Positions 3,818 to 62,883 of a stretch of DNA of 64,000 nucleotides are shown here, in pieces. Origin of the DNA: Escherichia phage vB_Ec-M-J; the sequence record OQ718158.1. One strand, 5' to 3'. Every line of letters begins with the position of its first letter. Within the stretch, counting starts at the first letter, position 1. The translations under genes were made by a program, and so were the position numbers. The notes below the pieces were generated by a model. It worked only from the letters and a program-made list of their open reading frames with translations, made no database searches and had not been told where the DNA came from.

Positions 3818-3848
3818 GGAAGACCTTTATGGGTCTTCCTTGTCCTTT
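3818..3848 (+). terminator. probable terminator hairpin
   Basis: ggaagacc / ggtcttcc stem, U-rich tail interrupted. Confidence 0.45.
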
Positions 3849-3849
3849 A

Positions 3850-3857
3850 TATAAATA
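3850..3857 (+). promoter_or_regulatory. T4-type late-promoter-like box TATAAATA
   Basis: Exact TATAAATA about 40 nt upstream of the 798-aa ORF start; no -35 element. Confidence 0.4.
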
Positions 3858-3895: not shown

Positions 3896-6292
3896 ATGAC
3901 AACTTTTACCCCTAGATGGGATATAAAAGCCGATGCTCGATATATACAAGAAGGACAAGACATTCTTGTGCGTTTGAGTATCAACAAAGAAACCACAACG
4001 GATGATAGTTATATACTTAATGAAAACGAATACTTAGAGATGATTCTAACTATTCAGGGTTTGGACAGTTCTGATGCAGTATTTCAACCAGAAGATCACT
4101 ACGCAGTGTATGTTGGTAATGATGAATCTAATCTCACACCTATATCATCAGGTATTACTGGTAACAAGTTGATTAATGGTAAGCACAAATGTAAAATTGA
4201 TAAAACTCAATTTGATCTATCGGCAAGCACTAATACCGAAGATGTTTATTTTATTAAATTGCATTGTAAAGATGATGGTACATTTAACAACTCTGAACAG
4301 ATTAACTTCTATCTTCAAGCAGTAAATGTTATGTACTATGGTAACATTTCCCCTAGTGGTGAAATTGGTTCAAATGAAGTAACAATTGAATATGATAGTC
4401 AGGAAGTGTGGGTTACTCCTGGAATCGAAATCGGTGATGATGACAAATTATATTGTATTGGTGATATTGAATACGGTTCCAACAGTACTTTATTTGTACA
4501 GGGATTTGGTCGTCGTCGTCCATTTATTTTAGGAACTGATACATCAACTGACCTATCTCCTAGAGTATTTTATCCAGCGTATCGTCTACTCGATATGACC
4601 CCAGCAGAAGTTCCTGTACGCCACATCACTGATGATTATGCAATCCTACGTCCTATTGATAATATATGGCCTGTATTTGGTATTAATAAAGAAATTAAGG
4701 TTAATATTCAAACTAGCTCTGGAGAGTTACTAGATTCAGGATTGGTTTTCAACCCAAATGGACAATTTCTGCAAACATTCCTATATGACTCTGATGCATG
4801 TGATGCATATTTCAAAGTTGAAATTGTTGATATTTTGAGTACATATAGTTATGACACTGACCGCTTCGCTATAAACCAACGTTTCAAAGCATATCAAATG
4901 TGGGTATGTCCAGACAATGTAGATGGTATATACGCTGATGGTGATAAACCTTTACCTAATCATTTGTATCAGTTGAAAGATAACGTTGTATATCCATATG
5001 TAATCTCTGGTGAATATGATCTAGGTGAAACAAAGCCAGTGTTTAAAAGTTCAGATTGGATTGATTTAGGATATTATGATTCAAGCTTAGGTGAGAATAT
5101 TATAGGTGAAGAGAAGATGTTCCGTGTTCTAGTGAACGCAGAAGAAGGAAACTCAATAGACTTCACAACTGATAGTGATTTAGGTAGTATTCATGTGGGT
5201 GAATATTTCGGTCACAGTACTTATCCACAAATACAAACTACCAGTACTAATCAGGTATCTTATGTATTAGATGGTGGACCTGATGATATTCGCAAATATG
5301 GTTTGGACCTCACCGCAGATGGGTTCTTGGTCGGGACGGCATATGCAAAAAGTTTAGATTTCAGTGCAAATGATGATATAAATTTAGAATTCAACATCAA
5401 AGCATATGACACTGAAGGTGGTGTTGCGTCCAAGTTATTTAAACTTAAAATTGTACGTGGTTTTGGACAAAACTACTTAAGTGCACATATTGTACCTTCT
5501 GTTTATTTTGAACGTGAATGGTTTAAGTGTATTAGTACACCATCATTTACAAATCAAGCTTTCCATCGCCAATCAGATGATAGATACGGGTTACAAAAAG
5601 TACCACGTATTTTATTAAAAGAAAACTTTTTGAGTCAGAACTATACTTACACTACGTTGAGTGATATTAAAAAAGTACTTAGGGAAAATATCATAAACCA
5701 AACTGGTGCAACTATACCTGATGGAAAATTTAGAATGGTAATGGGCAACTATAAAGTAATGTCAGCACTTGACAACCAAGGTAACTTGCAGTATGATATA
5801 TTATACCGTGAAGTTTTACCAGCAGGTTCATTGGTGTCAGTTTCTAAGAATCCAAGAAGTTACACGCAAATTGATAACGGAACACTCGGTGAAATATTTG
5901 GCTTGCGTCAAAATATTTTTGCAGCAATTGGCGAAGACACAACTAACCTTGTGAAAGACCCAACTGATTTACAGAACCGTGGTTTGTATGTAGATGCTAT
6001 ACCTGGAATTTCTGATGAGATGCTAGATACTGTTCCTCGCTTCATGAATCACCCATACGAAGAAGATGGAGTTAAAAAGAAATTCATGCCAATCATTCCA
6101 GTTGCATACTGTGCACCAGGAAAGGGTGAAGCATTCTTTAACACTTTACTTCAGAACAATGAACATGGTAAGATGGTTGGTGTTGAGTTTGAAATCACAG
6201 GAGTTGAATTTGGATTCTTTGCACATGAATTCGAAAACTACGTTCATGATACATTTTTGATTTCATTACAAAACAGCAATTTAGGAGGATGA
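3896..6292 (+). CDS. large hypothetical protein (798 aa), possibly a late/virion protein
   Basis: Long ORF; start moved to ATG 3896 (GGAG 8 nt upstream); late-type box upstream; no catalytic motif recognised. Confidence 0.8.
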   Translation: MTTFTPRWDIKADARYIQEGQDILVRLSINKETTTDDSYILNENEYLEMILTIQGLDSSDAVFQPEDHYAVYVGNDESNLTPISSGITGNKLINGKHKCKIDKTQFDLSASTNTEDVYFIKLHCKDDGTFNNSEQINFYLQAVNVMYYGNISPSGEIGSNEVTIEYDSQEVWVTPGIEIGDDDKLYCIGDIEYGSNSTLFVQGFGRRRPFILGTDTSTDLSPRVFYPAYRLLDMTPAEVPVRHITDDYAILRPIDNIWPVFGINKEIKVNIQTSSGELLDSGLVFNPNGQFLQTFLYDSDACDAYFKVEIVDILSTYSYDTDRFAINQRFKAYQMWVCPDNVDGIYADGDKPLPNHLYQLKDNVVYPYVISGEYDLGETKPVFKSSDWIDLGYYDSSLGENIIGEEKMFRVLVNAEEGNSIDFTTDSDLGSIHVGEYFGHSTYPQIQTTSTNQVSYVLDGGPDDIRKYGLDLTADGFLVGTAYAKSLDFSANDDINLEFNIKAYDTEGGVASKLFKLKIVRGFGQNYLSAHIVPSVYFEREWFKCISTPSFTNQAFHRQSDDRYGLQKVPRILLKENFLSQNYTYTTLSDIKKVLRENIINQTGATIPDGKFRMVMGNYKVMSALDNQGNLQYDILYREVLPAGSLVSVSKNPRSYTQIDNGTLGEIFGLRQNIFAAIGEDTTNLVKDPTDLQNRGLYVDAIPGISDEMLDTVPRFMNHPYEEDGVKKKFMPIIPVAYCAPGKGEAFFNTLLQNNEHGKMVGVEFEITGVEFGFFAHEFENYVHDTFLISLQNSNLGG

Positions 6293-6293
6293 T

Positions 6294-6605
6294 ATGTTCA
6301 ATCCATTTTTTGATCCATCAACCATGACCGAGAAAGAGTTACAATTGAAAATTAACGAACAATCGATGCGTATTACGTCTGCTCGTGCAGCAGGTATGAG
6401 TGATATGATTGTTGGTAACATGCAAACCGTTCTGAATCAGTGCTATGCTGAATTAGAGATTCGTCAGGGACAAAAAGAAAAAACCTCCTATGATGAGCAA
6501 GACCCATGTATATTTGACATGAACTCTTACTTAACGGATAACGAAGAGGATCAGAAGAAGAAAAATGAAAGTACAAGGAAACAGATTTATAAGTCCCAAT
6601 GGTGA
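6294..6605 (+). CDS. hypothetical protein (103 aa)
   Basis: ATG preceded by aggagga; starts 2 nt after upstream stop. Confidence 0.6.
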   Translation: MFNPFFDPSTMTEKELQLKINEQSMRITSARAAGMSDMIVGNMQTVLNQCYAELEIRQGQKEKTSYDEQDPCIFDMNSYLTDNEEDQKKKNESTRKQIYKSQW

Positions 6606-7083
6606 TGTAAAATGTAACCTTAATGCAGTCGTGTATGCAATCAACTGTGGTGCAGATATTCAGTACTTACAGCTACAGGAGATTGACGAACCGGAACGAT
6701 TGAAATTTAACGATAATTGTAAAAAATTTGGTTTAGAACAGCGTATGCTGGATTATACAATAGAACATGATAAAAACCATGAGCTATGGCGTTATGATCC
6801 AGTGTACGATAACATCAACTTGCGTGAGTACTTTTTACAGAAATGTACATCGGATGAAGCCCGTGAACGTGTAATGTATGAGATTGATTTGTTTGAACAT
6901 TACAACATGACTAAGCTTTTAAGATGTATGATCTGGTTAGTTGATTATATGGAAGAGCACAATATTTTTTGGGGTCTTGGGCGTGGTAGTTCAGTGGCTT
7001 CGTATTGTTTGTTCCTGATTGATTTGCATATGGTTGATTCTTTGAAGTATAAACTAGATGTAAATGAATTTTTGAAATGGTAG
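6565..7083 (+). CDS. hypothetical protein (172 aa) with a C-terminal GRGSSVAS...IDL...EFL segment reminiscent of a Pol III alpha (DnaE) motif
   Basis: ORF overlaps upstream gene by 41 nt; motif resemblance is by eye only. Confidence 0.5.
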   Translation: MKVQGNRFISPNGDVKCNLNAVVYAINCGADIQYLQLQEIDEPERLKFNDNCKKFGLEQRMLDYTIEHDKNHELWRYDPVYDNINLREYFLQKCTSDEARERVMYEIDLFEHYNMTKLLRCMIWLVDYMEEHNIFWGLGRGSSVASYCLFLIDLHMVDSLKYKLDVNEFLKW

Positions 7084-9768: not shown

Positions 9769-9791
9769 GGGGATTATTTAATCCCCTTTTA
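9769..9791 (+). terminator. Rho-independent terminator
   Basis: ggggat...atcccc hairpin followed by tttt. Confidence 0.7.
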
Positions 9792-35379: not shown

Positions 35380-35396
35380 ATATTGGAACAGACTAT

Positions 35397-35512
<116 letters not shown>

Positions 35513-35945: not shown

Positions 35946-36113
<168 letters not shown>

Positions 36114-36114
36114 G

Positions 36115-36536
<422 letters not shown>

Positions 36537-37755: not shown

Positions 37756-38253
<498 letters not shown>

Positions 38254-38254
38254 T

Positions 38255-38286
<32 letters not shown>

Positions 38287-38330
38287 GATTCCCGATTCAG
38301 TAGTTTTAAAGCAGACCCGTATGTGCCTAT

Positions 38331-38422
<92 letters not shown>

Positions 38423-38441
38423 AGAGGTACTTCGAGTATGC

Positions 38442-38493
<52 letters not shown>

Positions 38494-38766: not shown

Positions 38767-38894
38767 TCAGGTCGATTAGTTAAAAGAGTATAACACGGAC
38801 CTTGTAAGTCTGAATAATCAGTGCAATTCTGATATTGACCTCAAAAATGATATTTTTCTTACATATAAATACTCCATAATATATGGAGAACTAT

Positions 38895-43439: not shown

Positions 43440-44255
43440 ATGAGCAACATTTTCTTCAAAACCATTTCCTTCAAAAAAGAATCTTACTCTTACGCTTATG
43501 TAGATGGTAAAGTACTCAATATCGTTCTAGATGGTGTTGATGTGCCTGTTCAATTTACCAGTCATCAAGAAGCGATTGAGGGTGCTCAAGAGCTTAACAG
43601 CTTACTAAATGGTATTGAGAAGAAACCTGAAGTTAAATCTGACCTTGATTTATTGGTTGACAAAATTAAAAGTGGTGAACTATTATCAATTCTAGACCAG
43701 TGTAATGAAAAATTACGTGGTGTTGTTGGTGATGTACGTACTACAGTTCAAGATCGTCTACTTGAGCAAGCATTCAAAGAAGTTACTAAGAAAACTGAAG
43801 AACGTGTTGAAGGTATGATTAAAAACATTGATGACGTTCTCACTCATATGTTCACCAAGCCATACGAATCAAGTACTGATTCTGAAGAGAAACAAGAAGA
43901 ACCAGTAGAACGCACCAAGCCATCTATTGTTACTAAAGTTAAACATAGTTTTGGTTCACTGGATGATGTATTTGGCTTTACAAATGTACGTGTTAGTACT
44001 GATGAAAAACCAGAAGTTGATGAAATGCTAATTGGTGACATGACAACTGGACAACTCAAAAAAGAGATTGATACCTTTGTTAATGAACTAATTAGTTCTG
44101 AACGTGCTGAAAATATGTTTAGCAGTATTTCAGCAAACTTCGGTAAAGAAGCAACTGAGCAAGCAGTACAGGCATTCAAAGATTTGATTTACACTGTTGC
44201 AATTGCTAATCCAGAACAAACACTGGAAGAAGTTCTACGTAAAAACTTCAAATAA
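43440..44255 (+). CDS. hypothetical acidic protein (271 aa)
   Basis: ATG with SD aaggag. Confidence 0.7.
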   Translation: MSNIFFKTISFKKESYSYAYVDGKVLNIVLDGVDVPVQFTSHQEAIEGAQELNSLLNGIEKKPEVKSDLDLLVDKIKSGELLSILDQCNEKLRGVVGDVRTTVQDRLLEQAFKEVTKKTEERVEGMIKNIDDVLTHMFTKPYESSTDSEEKQEEPVERTKPSIVTKVKHSFGSLDDVFGFTNVRVSTDEKPEVDEMLIGDMTTGQLKKEIDTFVNELISSERAENMFSSISANFGKEATEQAVQAFKDLIYTVAIANPEQTLEEVLRKNFK

Positions 44256-44269
44256 GATATAGATAAAAG

Positions 44270-44296
44270 AAAAGCCACTACAATGTAGTGGCTTTT
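44270..44296. terminator. bidirectional Rho-independent terminator
   Basis: aaaagccactacaatgtagtggctttt: A-run before and T-run after the hairpin, between convergent genes. Confidence 0.75.
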
Positions 44297-44299
44297 TTG

Positions 44300-45457
44300 T
44301 TATGCGTTATAACCAACAATGACTACAGTACAGCCAAATGGTTCAACAACTTTTAATACAACATTATCATCTGCATCGAGTTCAACTTCACTTAGAACAA
44401 CATGATTGTCTTCAGCATATACTTGAACTTGTGGGAGGATTTTACCATGTTCACTGACAGGAATGGACAGTGTGTACATAGAATCACCATCAACTACCCA
44501 ATCACTATCGGTATACGTGTTGTGATATGGAGTGGTGTGTAAGGTTTTACCAATAATACTCAATGAGATTGGAGCGTCATCAGTTTGGTACACAGTAATA
44601 TTACCGCTAGGATCTACAATGAGGTCTACTCCAATTTGGAATAAATCACCACTGTATGCTTGTAGAGCAAGATACTCACCACGCTCATGCACAGTAGCTG
44701 GTACAGTTGCCATGTACATACCATCGGACGTGTACTCAAACTGAGATAGAAGTACTGAAGTAACGAAGTCAATATCTTCGCCGCTTTCTAGTATATCAAA
44801 TTCAATAGTTTTGGTATTATATATGTCAGAAGTGAGTATGATGGTTCCTTTACCGGATTGAGTAATTGGATCAACTGGAATACTAAAAACATCATCAATT
44901 ATTTCAGTTGTGAAGTACTCGGTTCCGTCAGGAAGTATAACGGTAATACGCATTCCAGTTGTATCAATGGCTGAACCTGCGTTGAATAGGCGACCACCTA
45001 CCAAATCATCACCTACGAACGTTGGGAACATAAGGATGTTGTCTATATCTCTATCTATAATCCCGCATTCAGGGGTGTACATATTATATAGTGTTTGTGA
45101 ACTACCTAGAATTGTTTTGTGCAAAAGAAACTTATAAACAAACCCAGTAGGATCTGATTCAAGTTTAGCATCTGAGTATCCTCTTACGAAAAAAGAGTTC
45201 TTTCTTATTTCACTTAGGATTTGGTCATTAGTTTTGTTGTAGTTTAATTGATATCCTTGTATATCCTTTGTTGTAATTTGTACTTTACGATAAATTACAT
45301 TACTTACAGGATCAAGTAAATCATATAATCTATGGCTTCTCTGACGATAGATTCGAACATTTTTGAGTTTAGTCCCATCGTTGAGAATTGCACCATCGAC
45401 TACATATCCACATTCACCGAACTTATATCGTCCAGCAGCAGCAATCGATCTTGACAT
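44300..45457 (-). CDS. hypothetical protein (385 aa), only clear minus-strand gene
   Basis: Long ORF; SD ggaggg 5 nt upstream of ATG on minus strand; late-box-like AATAAATA upstream; function not recognisable. Confidence 0.8.
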   Translation of the reverse strand: MSRSIAAAGRYKFGECGYVVDGAILNDGTKLKNVRIYRQRSHRLYDLLDPVSNVIYRKVQITTKDIQGYQLNYNKTNDQILSEIRKNSFFVRGYSDAKLESDPTGFVYKFLLHKTILGSSQTLYNMYTPECGIIDRDIDNILMFPTFVGDDLVGGRLFNAGSAIDTTGMRITVILPDGTEYFTTEIIDDVFSIPVDPITQSGKGTIILTSDIYNTKTIEFDILESGEDIDFVTSVLLSQFEYTSDGMYMATVPATVHERGEYLALQAYSGDLFQIGVDLIVDPSGNITVYQTDDAPISLSIIGKTLHTTPYHNTYTDSDWVVDGDSMYTLSIPVSEHGKILPQVQVYAEDNHVVLSEVELDADDNVVLKVVEPFGCTVVIVGYNA

Positions 45458-45517
45458 TCATCCCTCCATTGGTATAATTATTATAACGTATTTATTCTAG
45501 ATAGGTAAAAAAGCACC

Positions 45518-45546
45518 TTGACTGAGTTGTGTTTTTGACGTATACT
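45518..45546 (+). promoter_or_regulatory. sigma70-type promoter (TTGACT-17-TATACT)
   Basis: Upstream of gene at 45574, divergent from the minus-strand gene. Confidence 0.45.
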
Positions 45547-50231: not shown

Positions 50232-51200
50232 GTGAAAAAGCTTGATTTAAATGCAATTTCTGAAGAAGTACTGGATGAGTGTTTTGCTAGTGAAGAAGTC
50301 AACGTATTAGAGGCTCTTGATTCCGTAGAAGAAGAAGAAGAACATGACGGTCACAAGTTTGAGAAACCAAAAACAGGTATCAGCTTAACTCGCCCTAAAG
50401 GGATAACGAATGAAATGCTCATCCAAGCAGTGCGTGATGGCATAGACGTTAAAAAGAACATTGACCTTTTGGTTCGCTACAACTATCCAATGGTAGTAAG
50501 TGTTGCACGTAAGTGTACATGTTTTATCCCATTTGAAGATAAGATTTCTTATGGTGTTGAAGGTTTAATGCGAGCAATTCATACGTTCGACACTACCAAA
50601 AATGTTAAGTTCATTACATATGCAACAACAACTGTGTACATGACAATCTATAACGAAAGTGCAGATGCTAATTATCTAGTGCATTTCCCACGTTATATGA
50701 GTGTTAATAACATTTATGTGAAACGTTGTGTTGAAGAGTATCAAAGGAAACATGGTAAATACCCAACTCCTGAGATGGTGTCAAAAGAGACTGGTATTGA
50801 GATTCAACACGTTAAGAATTGTCTAACTTACAATAACACTTATGTAGCATTGAATATGAAAATGAGTAATGATTCAGAAAGTACATTATCTGACATTGTT
50901 ACTTCAGTTGAACCTGATTACAACTTAGGTGTAGAAACTGTCAGTACCCCACTGGTACAAAGTATTGCAGAAATGATGAGTAACCTATCTACCAAAGACC
51001 GTGAATTGATTGAACGTGTACATGGTATTGGTTCTTATTCTGAACCAGAAACGCTACGAGAAATCATTGAGAGTGGTTTTGAAGATGAGAAGGGTAAGGT
51101 CATGACTGCTCGTTCTTCATTGCACCGTAAGTACTCTGAAGCAATGGAACGACTGCGTAAGATGGTTAAGACAAAAGGTTATGAGTTCGAAGATTTTTAA
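50232..51200 (+). CDS. sigma-70 family RNA polymerase sigma factor (322 aa), GTG start
   Basis: Region 2 ISYGVEGLMRAIHTFDTTKNVKFITYATTTVYMTIYNE, linker KYPTPEMVSKETG, region 4 HTH at C-terminus; GTG after SD aggaga. Confidence 0.85.
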   Translation: MKKLDLNAISEEVLDECFASEEVNVLEALDSVEEEEEHDGHKFEKPKTGISLTRPKGITNEMLIQAVRDGIDVKKNIDLLVRYNYPMVVSVARKCTCFIPFEDKISYGVEGLMRAIHTFDTTKNVKFITYATTTVYMTIYNESADANYLVHFPRYMSVNNIYVKRCVEEYQRKHGKYPTPEMVSKETGIEIQHVKNCLTYNNTYVALNMKMSNDSESTLSDIVTSVEPDYNLGVETVSTPLVQSIAEMMSNLSTKDRELIERVHGIGSYSEPETLREIIESGFEDEKGKVMTARSSLHRKYSEAMERLRKMVKTKGYEFEDF

Positions 51201-51206
51201 GATTAA

Positions 51207-51234
51207 AGGGTTGACTTCGGTCAGCCCTTTTTTT
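51207..51234 (+). terminator. Rho-independent terminator with UUCG loop
   Basis: agggttgac ttcg gtcagccct then ttttttt. Confidence 0.75.
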
Positions 51235-51239
51235 ATGGG

Positions 51240-51770
51240 ACAAATTTATTAATGGTGATACAATGATCTATGTACAATCACAATGACAGTACTGGTACTG
51301 ACAATCTTCCCCTACTTCACTTGAAAATGTAAAGGATAGATGAGCTTTTCATTGTAGCGAACAGCAAAAGAAACCCGTTAGATGTGGGCATAGTTTGAAC
51401 CCCTCACGGCAATGCGGCTGTATAAAGAACCACGTTAGGATAGCTGGTGGTTCCTCGATAGACATATAAGGATAACACCTTACGAATTATCTAAGGGAGA
51501 GTTATCGAATTTTGTACAGGAAAGTTGCGTCCAAAATTTGAGTACTCACATTAAGTATTTGATTGCATAGATACTTAATGAAGATACACTATGTTTAAAA
51601 GTGTAGACCGTCATATGAAACTGAAGTAGAGAGAAACAGGATGACCCGCTTTCGCACTCGTTATGAGTAATCTTCAATGCAATAGCTCTGATACCATTAG
51701 CGTCAAATTTCCCTCCGTGCGGGGGGGAAGAAAAATCCCTTCCTCAAATCCCGTCAATATTAAAAGTCCT
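51240..51770 (+). other. ~530-nt ORF-free region, candidate structured RNA or regulatory region
   Basis: No ORF of 60 aa or more in the six-frame track on either strand, and none found by eye in the + strand reading; nested inverted repeats; locally GC-richer. Confidence 0.3.
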
Positions 51771-51798
51771 TGACAGTTATGATTCATTCGCGTAGAAT
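51770..51798 (+). promoter_or_regulatory. sigma70-type promoter (TTGACA-17-TAGAAT)
   Basis: Upstream of gene at 51863. Confidence 0.55.
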
Positions 51799-51862
51799 AC
51801 GTAGTATTAGAAGCGAACAGACATCTCGAAGAGATGGATGATTAACCACTAAGGAATATCTA

Positions 51863-52072
51863 ATGAATTCAGTAATCTTTTTAATTATTGCTCTTTCACC
51901 ACAATCTGGTGTACAAATCACCCCAATGAATTCAATGAATCAATGCATTGCAGTACGTGACAGTACGTATGAACAAGTAAACAGCGTTTCACTTAGAACA
52001 GTTGGTGAAGAATTAATGTGGTGTTACAATAGTAATACTAAAGAAAAACTAATTGTTGGACAAACAGAATGA
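51863..52072 (+). CDS. small protein with N-terminal hydrophobic segment (69 aa)
   Basis: ATG with SD aaggaa. Confidence 0.5.
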   Translation: MNSVIFLIIALSPQSGVQITPMNSMNQCIAVRDSTYEQVNSVSLRTVGEELMWCYNSNTKEKLIVGQTE

Positions 52073-52296
52073 GTTATGGTGTTCGTTTTGAGATTCGTTC
52101 TATTGTTATCAATGACGAGAAACAAGCATCGTTGGATGACGATATACGAGAACTATATCTATCATGTATCCGTGCAAAATCTGAAGCAGATGCATTATCA
52201 CAAATGATTGGTTTTAATTTCTTTCATGGATACTATTTGGTACGAGTTATCGAAGTTAAAAAAGTCACTTTTGAGTGTCTTGCTGGAGAAATATAA
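52069..52296 (+). CDS. hypothetical protein (75 aa)
   Basis: ATGA-coupled. Confidence 0.5.
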   Translation: MSYGVRFEIRSIVINDEKQASLDDDIRELYLSCIRAKSEADALSQMIGFNFFHGYYLVRVIEVKKVTFECLAGEI

Positions 52297-59495: not shown

Positions 59496-59687
59496 ATGTT
59501 GATTTATCAATGTGATAACATTCGTGTTATGCAGCATCCCTACTTACAAATCTTTGATGTGCAGCAGTATATGGAAGGTGATGACCCAAGAACCTATGGT
59601 CGTAAGTATGATTACTTCACTGTAAAGCAGTGTCATAACATCAAAGAAGTACGACAATTAGTTCAAGAACTTCAAAATAAAGGTTGA
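59496..59687 (+). CDS. hypothetical protein (63 aa)
   Basis: ORF-track GTG 59466 overlaps upstream gene; ATG 59496 with SD gagga. Confidence 0.5.
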   Translation: MLIYQCDNIRVMQHPYLQIFDVQQYMEGDDPRTYGRKYDYFTVKQCHNIKEVRQLVQELQNKG

Positions 59688-59706
59688 CTTCGGTCAACCT
59701 TTTTTG
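59681..59706 (+). terminator. Rho-independent terminator with UUCG loop, doubling as -35 of a promoter
   Basis: aggttgac ttcg gtcaacct then tttttt; TTGACT in the stem is 18 nt upstream of TATAAT at 59708-59713. Confidence 0.7.
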
Positions 59707-61106: not shown

Positions 61107-61156
61107 ATTATAGGAATCCGTAAAAGGATTCCTGTTCTTGTTTATAAGGTAATAAA

Positions 61157-62772: not shown

Positions 62773-62883
62773 TTTGACTTTGGAACAACCATTTCATATG
62801 TGATATAATCTTAAGTGTCTGTTGAAATAAACAGCACATGAAGTATAAATATTAAAGTAATTTATCTCTTTAAGGAGTATGAA

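Follow-up and report, generated by a model that had tools for sequence, protein, structure and literature searches.

The window analysed here (the whole stretch of 64,000 nucleotides from Escherichia phage vB_Ec-M-J, OQ718158.1) contains one gene that runs in the opposite direction to all of its neighbours. This raises the question of what the gene encodes, and why it alone is inverted. An earlier note on this DNA had suggested that an inverted gene of this kind may be independently regulated or acquired. We propose that it is a virion gene native to the phage, which very probably forms a self-contained late transcription unit, inverted within a long early block. The features discussed are listed in Table 1.

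Table 1. The inverted gene, its neighbours and the signals around it. Positions are those of the window.
Feature	Position	Strand	Basis and remarks
Convergent neighbour, virion protein	43440..44255	+	Family match to phrog_14991 (121Q gp154, phAPEC6 gp078c, CBB_494)
Predicted two-way intrinsic-terminator hairpin	44270..44296	.	Fold energy, conservation in nine lineages, UE-S1 annotation
CDS, virion structural protein on the best reading, 385 aa	44300..45457	-	N-terminal anchor-like module and three Ig-like domains
Predicted sigma70 promoter P1, TTGACA-16-TGgTATAAT, towards gene 45574	45451..45478	+	Consensus scan, 12/12
Shine-Dalgarno GGAGGG	45462..45467	-	4 nt before ATG; conserved in upstream alignments
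Putative T4-type late promoter ATAAATACGTTATA	45482..45495	-	ATAAATA core; Porf_496 at the CBB orthologue
Predicted sigma70-like promoter P2, TTGACT-17-TATACT, for gene 45574	45518..45546	+	Scan; equivalent to Porf_497 in CBB
Divergent neighbour, 194 aa	45574..46158	+	phrog_16175; 64% to GAP32_476, 53% to XaC1_541

The open reading frame begins with ATG and ends with TAA. Its coding potential was scored with a codon model trained on long plus-strand genes only, and comes to +0.32 bits per codon, as compared with a mean of 0.40 and a minimum of 0.12 for the plus-strand genes. The remaining minus-strand ORFs of the window score at about zero or below in their own frame, and nearly all of them are outscored by a plus-strand frame over the same stretch. 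The claim made previously, that this is the sole convincing minus-strand gene in 64 kb, is thus borne out. About 75 kb of the related phage fEgEco12 contain a single minus-strand CDS, the orthologue g507, and in phAPEC6 gp011c to gp076c all lie on one strand, with gp077 as the exception. The gene also has its own Shine-Dalgarno, as had been noted, and this sequence is kept in the upstream alignments. Comparison with 121Q, Turkey5, UE-S1 and A4 gives dN/dS values of 0.08–0.20 (about 0.1) with synonymous sites saturated, and these alignments indicate that the gene is under purifying selection. The possibility that the ORF is spurious was rejected on the basis of codon score, composition and purifying selection.

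The protein matches phrog_10468 ('virion structural protein') with E = 2.4e-157, residues 1–384 aligning with positions 1–384 of the 384 in the profile, and its counterpart in 121Q, gp155, is annotated as 'virion structural protein, Ig-domain'. There are 16 orthologous clusters, at 31–99% identity. The family match to 121Q gp155, phAPEC6 gp077 and CBB_496 is full-length, with 76% identity to the 121Q protein and 40% to that of CBB. Two of these orthologues have been detected in virions by mass spectrometry: phAPEC6 gp077 was identified in purified virions from 10 unique peptides, which covered 37.8% of it (PMC7247149 Table 1), and CBB_496 from 4 peptides, which covered 17.5% (PMC5259590 Table 4). 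The best reading of the gene, given these family matches, is that it encodes a virion structural protein of an Asteriusvirus-type jumbo myophage. Sequence searches of Pfam, NCBIfam and the PDB with the protein gave nothing significant, tblastn found no paralogue within the window or in 75 kb of fEgEco12, and no close homologue outside these phages was found in 5.8 billion proteins.

The orthologues in 121Q, phAPEC6 and CBB share the inversion, the neighbouring genes, and the positions of the hairpin and late box. There is no substantive difference between them and the window copy, which is 99% identical to those of EC.P1, BF17 and fEgEco12. The arrangement is therefore ordinary and largely already described, the virion gene being known, and the late promoter and the terminator having appeared in publications or in the annotation of relatives. 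On this gene, the Sharanji and fEgEco12 papers give no transcriptome, promoter or proteome data.

The conservation of the locus extends well beyond the closest relatives. The 2.8 kb around the gene is 99.0–99.4% identical to EC.P1, BF17, fEgEco12, Ecwhy_1, WPEC3 and WPEC5, and about 77% identical to 121Q, PBECO4 and phAPEC6 (Asteriusvirus, with genomes of 350–385 kb). The same single-gene inversion is present in 121Q, phAPEC6, Turkey5, UE-S1, A4, EJP2, GAP32, CBB and XaC1, with protein identity down to 32%, and the hosts of these relatives include E. coli, Cronobacter (GAP32), Pectobacterium (CBB) and Xanthomonas (XaC1). The flanking genes are orthologous across nine lineages (the convergent neighbour matches GAP32_473 with E = 2e-14), and the hairpin and late box are also kept. 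The divergent neighbour is annotated as 'putative endonuclease' in fEgEco12, and across the clade it has changed less than the virion gene. The earlier note had envisaged that the ORF might be disrupted in close relatives. It is intact in all nine lineages examined, and in 60 of 61 phage records from Asteriusvirus, Mimasvirus and related groups a single place accounts for at least 80% of the protein. In the CMSTMSU record the orthologue aligned in two pieces. In Salmonella phage SD-6_S16, which has a genome about 30 kb shorter than its relatives, the orthologue (601–1697 in the coordinates of the extracted locus) is annotated as two CDSs of 729 and 294 nt; the gene may truly be disrupted there, or the split may stem from the assembly.

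These data bear directly on the question of origin. The gene has its own promoter-like sequence, Shine-Dalgarno and terminator, and an orientation opposite to all its neighbours, as might suit a recently acquired and autonomously expressed island, similar to a moron, lying outside the phage's own programme. However, the same inverted position, with orthologous flanks, occurs in nine divergent lineages and 61 phage records; the codon usage resembles that of the plus-strand genes; the GC content is 36–38%, as in the flanks, with the GC skew merely switching sign across the gene; dN/dS is around 0.1; and the product is a virion component, as judged from mass spectrometry of the orthologues. An island would be expected to show atypical composition and a patchy distribution, whereas the composition is native and the gene is present throughout the clade. 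We therefore regard this explanation as highly improbable. The native codon usage and GC content, together with the low dN/dS, imply that the gene is ancient, and the proposal that it was acquired is not upheld, the inversion and its flanks being conserved from phages of E. coli to those of Xanthomonas.

The two convergent virion genes are separated by 44 nt between their stop codons in the window. This gap contains the hairpin AAAAGCCACTAC-aat-GTAGTGGCTTTT, which has a 12-bp stem and a 3-nt loop, with an A-run on its 5' side and a T-run on its 3' side. It starts 14 nt past the stop of the plus-strand gene, and lies 3 nt from the stop codon of the minus-strand gene. The RNA is predicted to fold with -20.9 kcal/mol on the plus strand (z = -5.6) and -17.7 kcal/mol on the minus strand (z = -4.8), and equally good folds were found in none of 200 shuffles. 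The flanking tracts mean that either strand reads the hairpin and then a U-run (TTTTTTG on the plus strand and TTTTCTTTT on the minus strand). The symmetric hairpin that had been described at this convergence is thus present, and stable on both strands.

A hairpin is found in the convergent gap in all nine lineages, with at least four different stem sequences: GCCACTACA in the window, 121Q and UE-S1; GCCTCC in Turkey5 and A4; GGCTCC in EJP2 and GGAGCC in XaC1; and GGCACTC in GAP32 and CBB. The structure has thus been maintained by covariation while its place has stayed fixed. A terminator is annotated at this site in the UE-S1 record, and another is listed for G17 inside the matched 2.8-kb region. 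In the Mimasvirus lineage, represented by GAP32 and CBB, an inserted methyltransferase gene separates the two convergent virion genes (GAP32 6149–6691 and CBB 6150–6689, in extracted-locus coordinates), and its stop codon is overlapped by the hairpin.

Bidirectional intrinsic terminators between convergent genes of bacteria and phages likewise consist of a GC-containing stem-loop between an A-tract and a T-tract. Unlike these, the stem seen here is formed in part by A-T pairs from the two runs, and its terminator function is a predicted one. It might therefore be asked whether the hairpin works in one direction only, or is mainly a stabiliser of mRNA 3' ends, with the matching A-run a by-product of AT-rich sequence. 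Four other sites in the window (3818–3839, 9769–9786, 59679–59701 and 61112–61132) carry similar hairpins between an A-run and a T-run, with no minus-strand gene nearby, and these hairpins also score as terminators on both strands. Symmetry is thus a house style of the phage and not unique to this gap. In XaC1, moreover, the reverse-side run is weak (TTCATTATTT). Nevertheless, eight of the nine lineages retain both runs, with four or more A on one side and four or more T on the other, despite replacement of the stem, and with convergent genes only 14–44 nt apart, a single element must serve both. On balance a one-way terminator or stabiliser seems unlikely, and the hairpin is taken here as a predicted two-way terminator.

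On the upstream side of the gene, the spacer to the divergent neighbour is 116 nt long. When five Asteriusvirus lineages are aligned, three parts of it stand out as conserved islands amid variable sequence: ATAAATA with a TATAA-like stretch after it; GTCAAG, the P2 -35 sequence CTTGAC as read on the other strand; and the Shine-Dalgarno. The first of these includes the box ATAAATAC (45495–45488, minus strand), which lies 38 nt before the ATG. This confirms the presence of the late-box-like sequence mentioned in the earlier note, and it is conserved: (A/G)TAAATA(C/T) is kept in all nine lineages. In the form AATAAATA, the putative late promoter box agrees with TATAAATA at seven of eight positions, at this distance from the ATG and in all nine lineages. 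The 20 nt on the 5' side of the box are not conserved among close relatives, as expected for a promoter that has no -35 element. This motif was found by MEME upstream of structural genes in CBB and likened by the authors to the T4 late promoter (PMC5259590), and Porf_496 (ATAAATACTTTATA) is listed as the predicted late promoter of the CBB orthologue (PMC5259590 Table S7).

The frequency of these motifs is in itself uninformative. ATAAATAC occurs 3 times in the window as against 6.6 expected, and TATAAATA is depleted, with 3 copies as against 9.7 expected; neither these nor the extended late motif exceed chance in the window, and only their positions carry information. The significance of the box thus comes from its position and conservation and not from motif count. 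There are 11 copies of ATAAATA in the window, 6 of which fall between genes, in the non-coding DNA that makes up only about 7% of the window, and the only minus-strand copy (45495–45489) stands in front of the only minus-strand gene. All three copies of TATAAATA are just upstream of start codons, two of the three belonging to virion-protein genes. They are found on the plus strand at 3850–3857, upstream of an 807-aa virion protein (3869); at 38864–38871, upstream of an HNH-endonuclease-like ORF (38883) adjoining the tRNA cluster; and at 62844–62851, upstream of a virion protein (62884). The extended form taken from the published CBB list, VTAAATA-N4-ATA, has three matches, all of them upstream of a start codon in the sense direction; by a rough estimate of our own, the chance of this placement is about 1e-4. 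The 120 nt upstream of the virion genes at 43440 and 19905 contain no late box, so that some virion genes of the window would lack a late promoter of their own.

The box overlaps a second possible promoter. A scan of the minus strand gives a 10/12 match to the sigma70 consensus, TTTACC-18-TATAAT (45509–45480), and its exact TATAAT (45485–45480) is shared by the window, 121Q, Turkey5, UE-S1 and CBB. The host sigma70 polymerase might therefore use this site, giving early or constitutive expression, in which case ATAAATA would be incidental. Conservation favours the other box: ATAAATA is invariant and stays in place, whereas the -35 region varies even among close relatives and the second box decays (TATAAG in A4, CATAAT in EJP2, AGAAAT in GAP32 and CATAAA in XaC1). 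Nor is an AT-rich stretch past ATAAATA peculiar to this site, being common to the 35 predicted late promoters of CBB. Together with the nature of the product, a virion protein, and the distribution of sigma70 sites described below, this makes host sigma70 transcription of the gene quite unlikely, and a late promoter at ATAAATA remains the preferred reading. CBB encodes a late sigma factor of the gp55 family, which matches gp55 of T4-like cyanophages and has a 75.6%-identical homologue in BF17.

The plus strand presents a very different picture. A scan for TTGACA-N16-18-TATAAT with a cut-off of 11/12 found 36 sites on the plus strand of the window, nine of them perfect, and none on the minus strand, as compared with about 3 per strand and 0.1 perfect in random sequence of the same composition. 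This corresponds to a strong host-type promoter roughly every 1.8 kb on the plus strand. The window would thus appear to be a dense block of sigma70-driven, and hence early, genes. It matches the 'early region' described for CBB, which comprises CBB_390–546 and includes CBB_496 (PMC5259590).

Two of the plus-strand promoters lie at the head of the inverted gene. P1 overlaps its start codon and Shine-Dalgarno and faces the late box, with the two predicted start sites about 2 nt apart; the -35 of P1 falls within the coding sequence, and its -10 outside. This face-to-face consensus promoter is kept in the window, 121Q, Turkey5 and UE-S1, is absent in A4, CBB and GAP32, and is thus found in a subset of Asteriusvirus only. 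Given this limitation to the closer lineages, it may be a by-product of a compact spacer rather than a designed switch. As to P2, its -35 sequence is invariant in the five Asteriusvirus sequences aligned, copies of GTCAA(G/C/A) recur in EJP2, GAP32 and CBB, and the equivalent spacer of CBB contains the RpoD-like Porf_497 (PMC5259590).

On the basis of these observations, we suggest the following sequence of events. Early in infection, host sigma70 RNA polymerase would transcribe the plus strand from its many consensus promoters. Transcription arriving from the left would halt at the hairpin and restart at P1 and P2 (45451–45546), so that the inverted gene would be neither read in antisense nor expressed early. 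Late in infection, polymerase carrying the phage gp55-family sigma would recognise ATAAATA and start about 25 nt before the ATG. The resulting mRNA would be translated from the GGAGGG Shine-Dalgarno, and would terminate at the same hairpin, approached from the opposite direction. In this way a late structural gene could lie within an early block and yet remain silent and escape antisense read-through. The suggestion that the gene is independently regulated thus gains indirect support, from a late-type box, a Shine-Dalgarno and a terminator of its own amid sigma70 promoters on the opposite strand.

There is a clear parallel in T4, where early and middle transcripts have one polarity and late transcripts either polarity, and where late promoters consist of a single 8-bp TATA box with no -35 element (PMC2988020). 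By analogy, the locus follows the T4 rule on the polarity of late genes. Like the late genes of T4, which use TATAAATA together with gp55, gp33 and gp45, it has an AT-rich 8-bp box without a conserved -35, a short leader and a strong Shine-Dalgarno, and a gp55-family sigma is encoded by the lineage, as in T4. The resemblance is not complete. The box here is (A/G)TAAATA(C/T) rather than TATAAATA, the late sigma of the lineage has 286 aa, of which only the C-terminal part aligns with cyanophage gp55, and the lineage also encodes an RpoD-like sigma. Homologues of gp33 and gp45 were not found by the CBB authors (PMC5259590). The locus matters mostly as a clean worked example: the combination of strand inversion, ATAAATA box and two-way hairpin would be a reliable marker, readable from sequence only, of a late virion gene in an early region.

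The protein itself is predicted to fold into an N-terminal anchor-like module (residues ~1–135) followed by three Ig-like β-sandwich domains (~140–225, 232–302 and 311–384). The module is the most conserved part, with 86% identity to 121Q as compared with 69–75% for the Ig domains. This fits an attachment domain bearing exposed, faster-evolving Ig-like domains, and it is most likely that the module anchors the protein to the particle, with the variable domains exposed on its surface. The architecture recalls Hoc of T4, which has one non-Ig attachment domain and three tandem Ig-like domains. The two proteins are of similar size and both are virion components, presumably late in the present case, and as in Hoc-type decoration proteins it is the exposed domains that evolve faster. 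The domain order is reversed, however, the non-Ig module being N-terminal here, and no homology to Hoc or any other known capsid-binding domain was found by sequence or fold.

A profile of the N-terminal 135 residues identified 94 representative clusters, nearly all of which have the module at residues 1 to ~120. The proteins that carry it range from 124 to 1859 aa, and in the members sampled, which come from contigs of up to 358 kb, it is followed by anything from none to more than seven Ig-like domains of the Big_2, Big_1 or Invasin type. In Rak2, CBB, Serratia phage BF and the 121Q group, proteins that begin with a homologous module are annotated as 'major tail protein' or 'structural protein with Ig domain'. 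In phages of about 350 kb, such as phAPEC6, for which some 83% of predicted proteins are reported to have no known function, a shared module with variable chains of Ig domains provides concrete candidates for the surface fibres and hairs left without genes by the phAPEC6 and CBB studies. The cryo-EM study of phAPEC6 describes a hexamer-centre fibre, a second-layer decoration protein and tail hairs, to none of which a gene was assigned, and one may speculate that the present protein is one of these in a virion of the phAPEC6 type. A bolder proposal, which we consider doubtful, is that the paralogous proteins with an N-terminal anchor and a string of Ig-like domains form the hair-like or hexamer-centre fibres of the 'hairy' Rak2-like jumbo phages, and that the Asteriusvirus spacer, with P1 and the late box opposed, acts as a mutually exclusive early/late switch.

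Some further features of the window are worth recording. The RpoD-like sigma (50232–51200, plus strand, 322 aa) contains regions 2 and 3, and differs from the late sigma of gp55 type. The next 1 kb or so (51200–52208) has no ORF of at least 100 aa, and some 660 nt at this place are likewise unannotated in fEgEco12. Neither 35992–36207 nor 38224–38487 has a frame with positive coding potential on either strand in the codon model; these stretches may be non-coding, or may hold very short or atypical genes. A search with Rfam over the window found five tRNA genes only, with no match at the inverted gene. They lie on the plus strand between 35423 and 38842, and correspond to Ser-TGA, Ser-GCT, Met-CAT, Asn-GTT and Thr-TGT. 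A second class of promoter published for the clade (TGGAAC/TGAAAT-N-TGnTATAAT) is represented by three matches on the plus strand at 7073, 35384 and 62781, the site at 35384 being immediately 5' of the tRNA-Ser gene at 35423.
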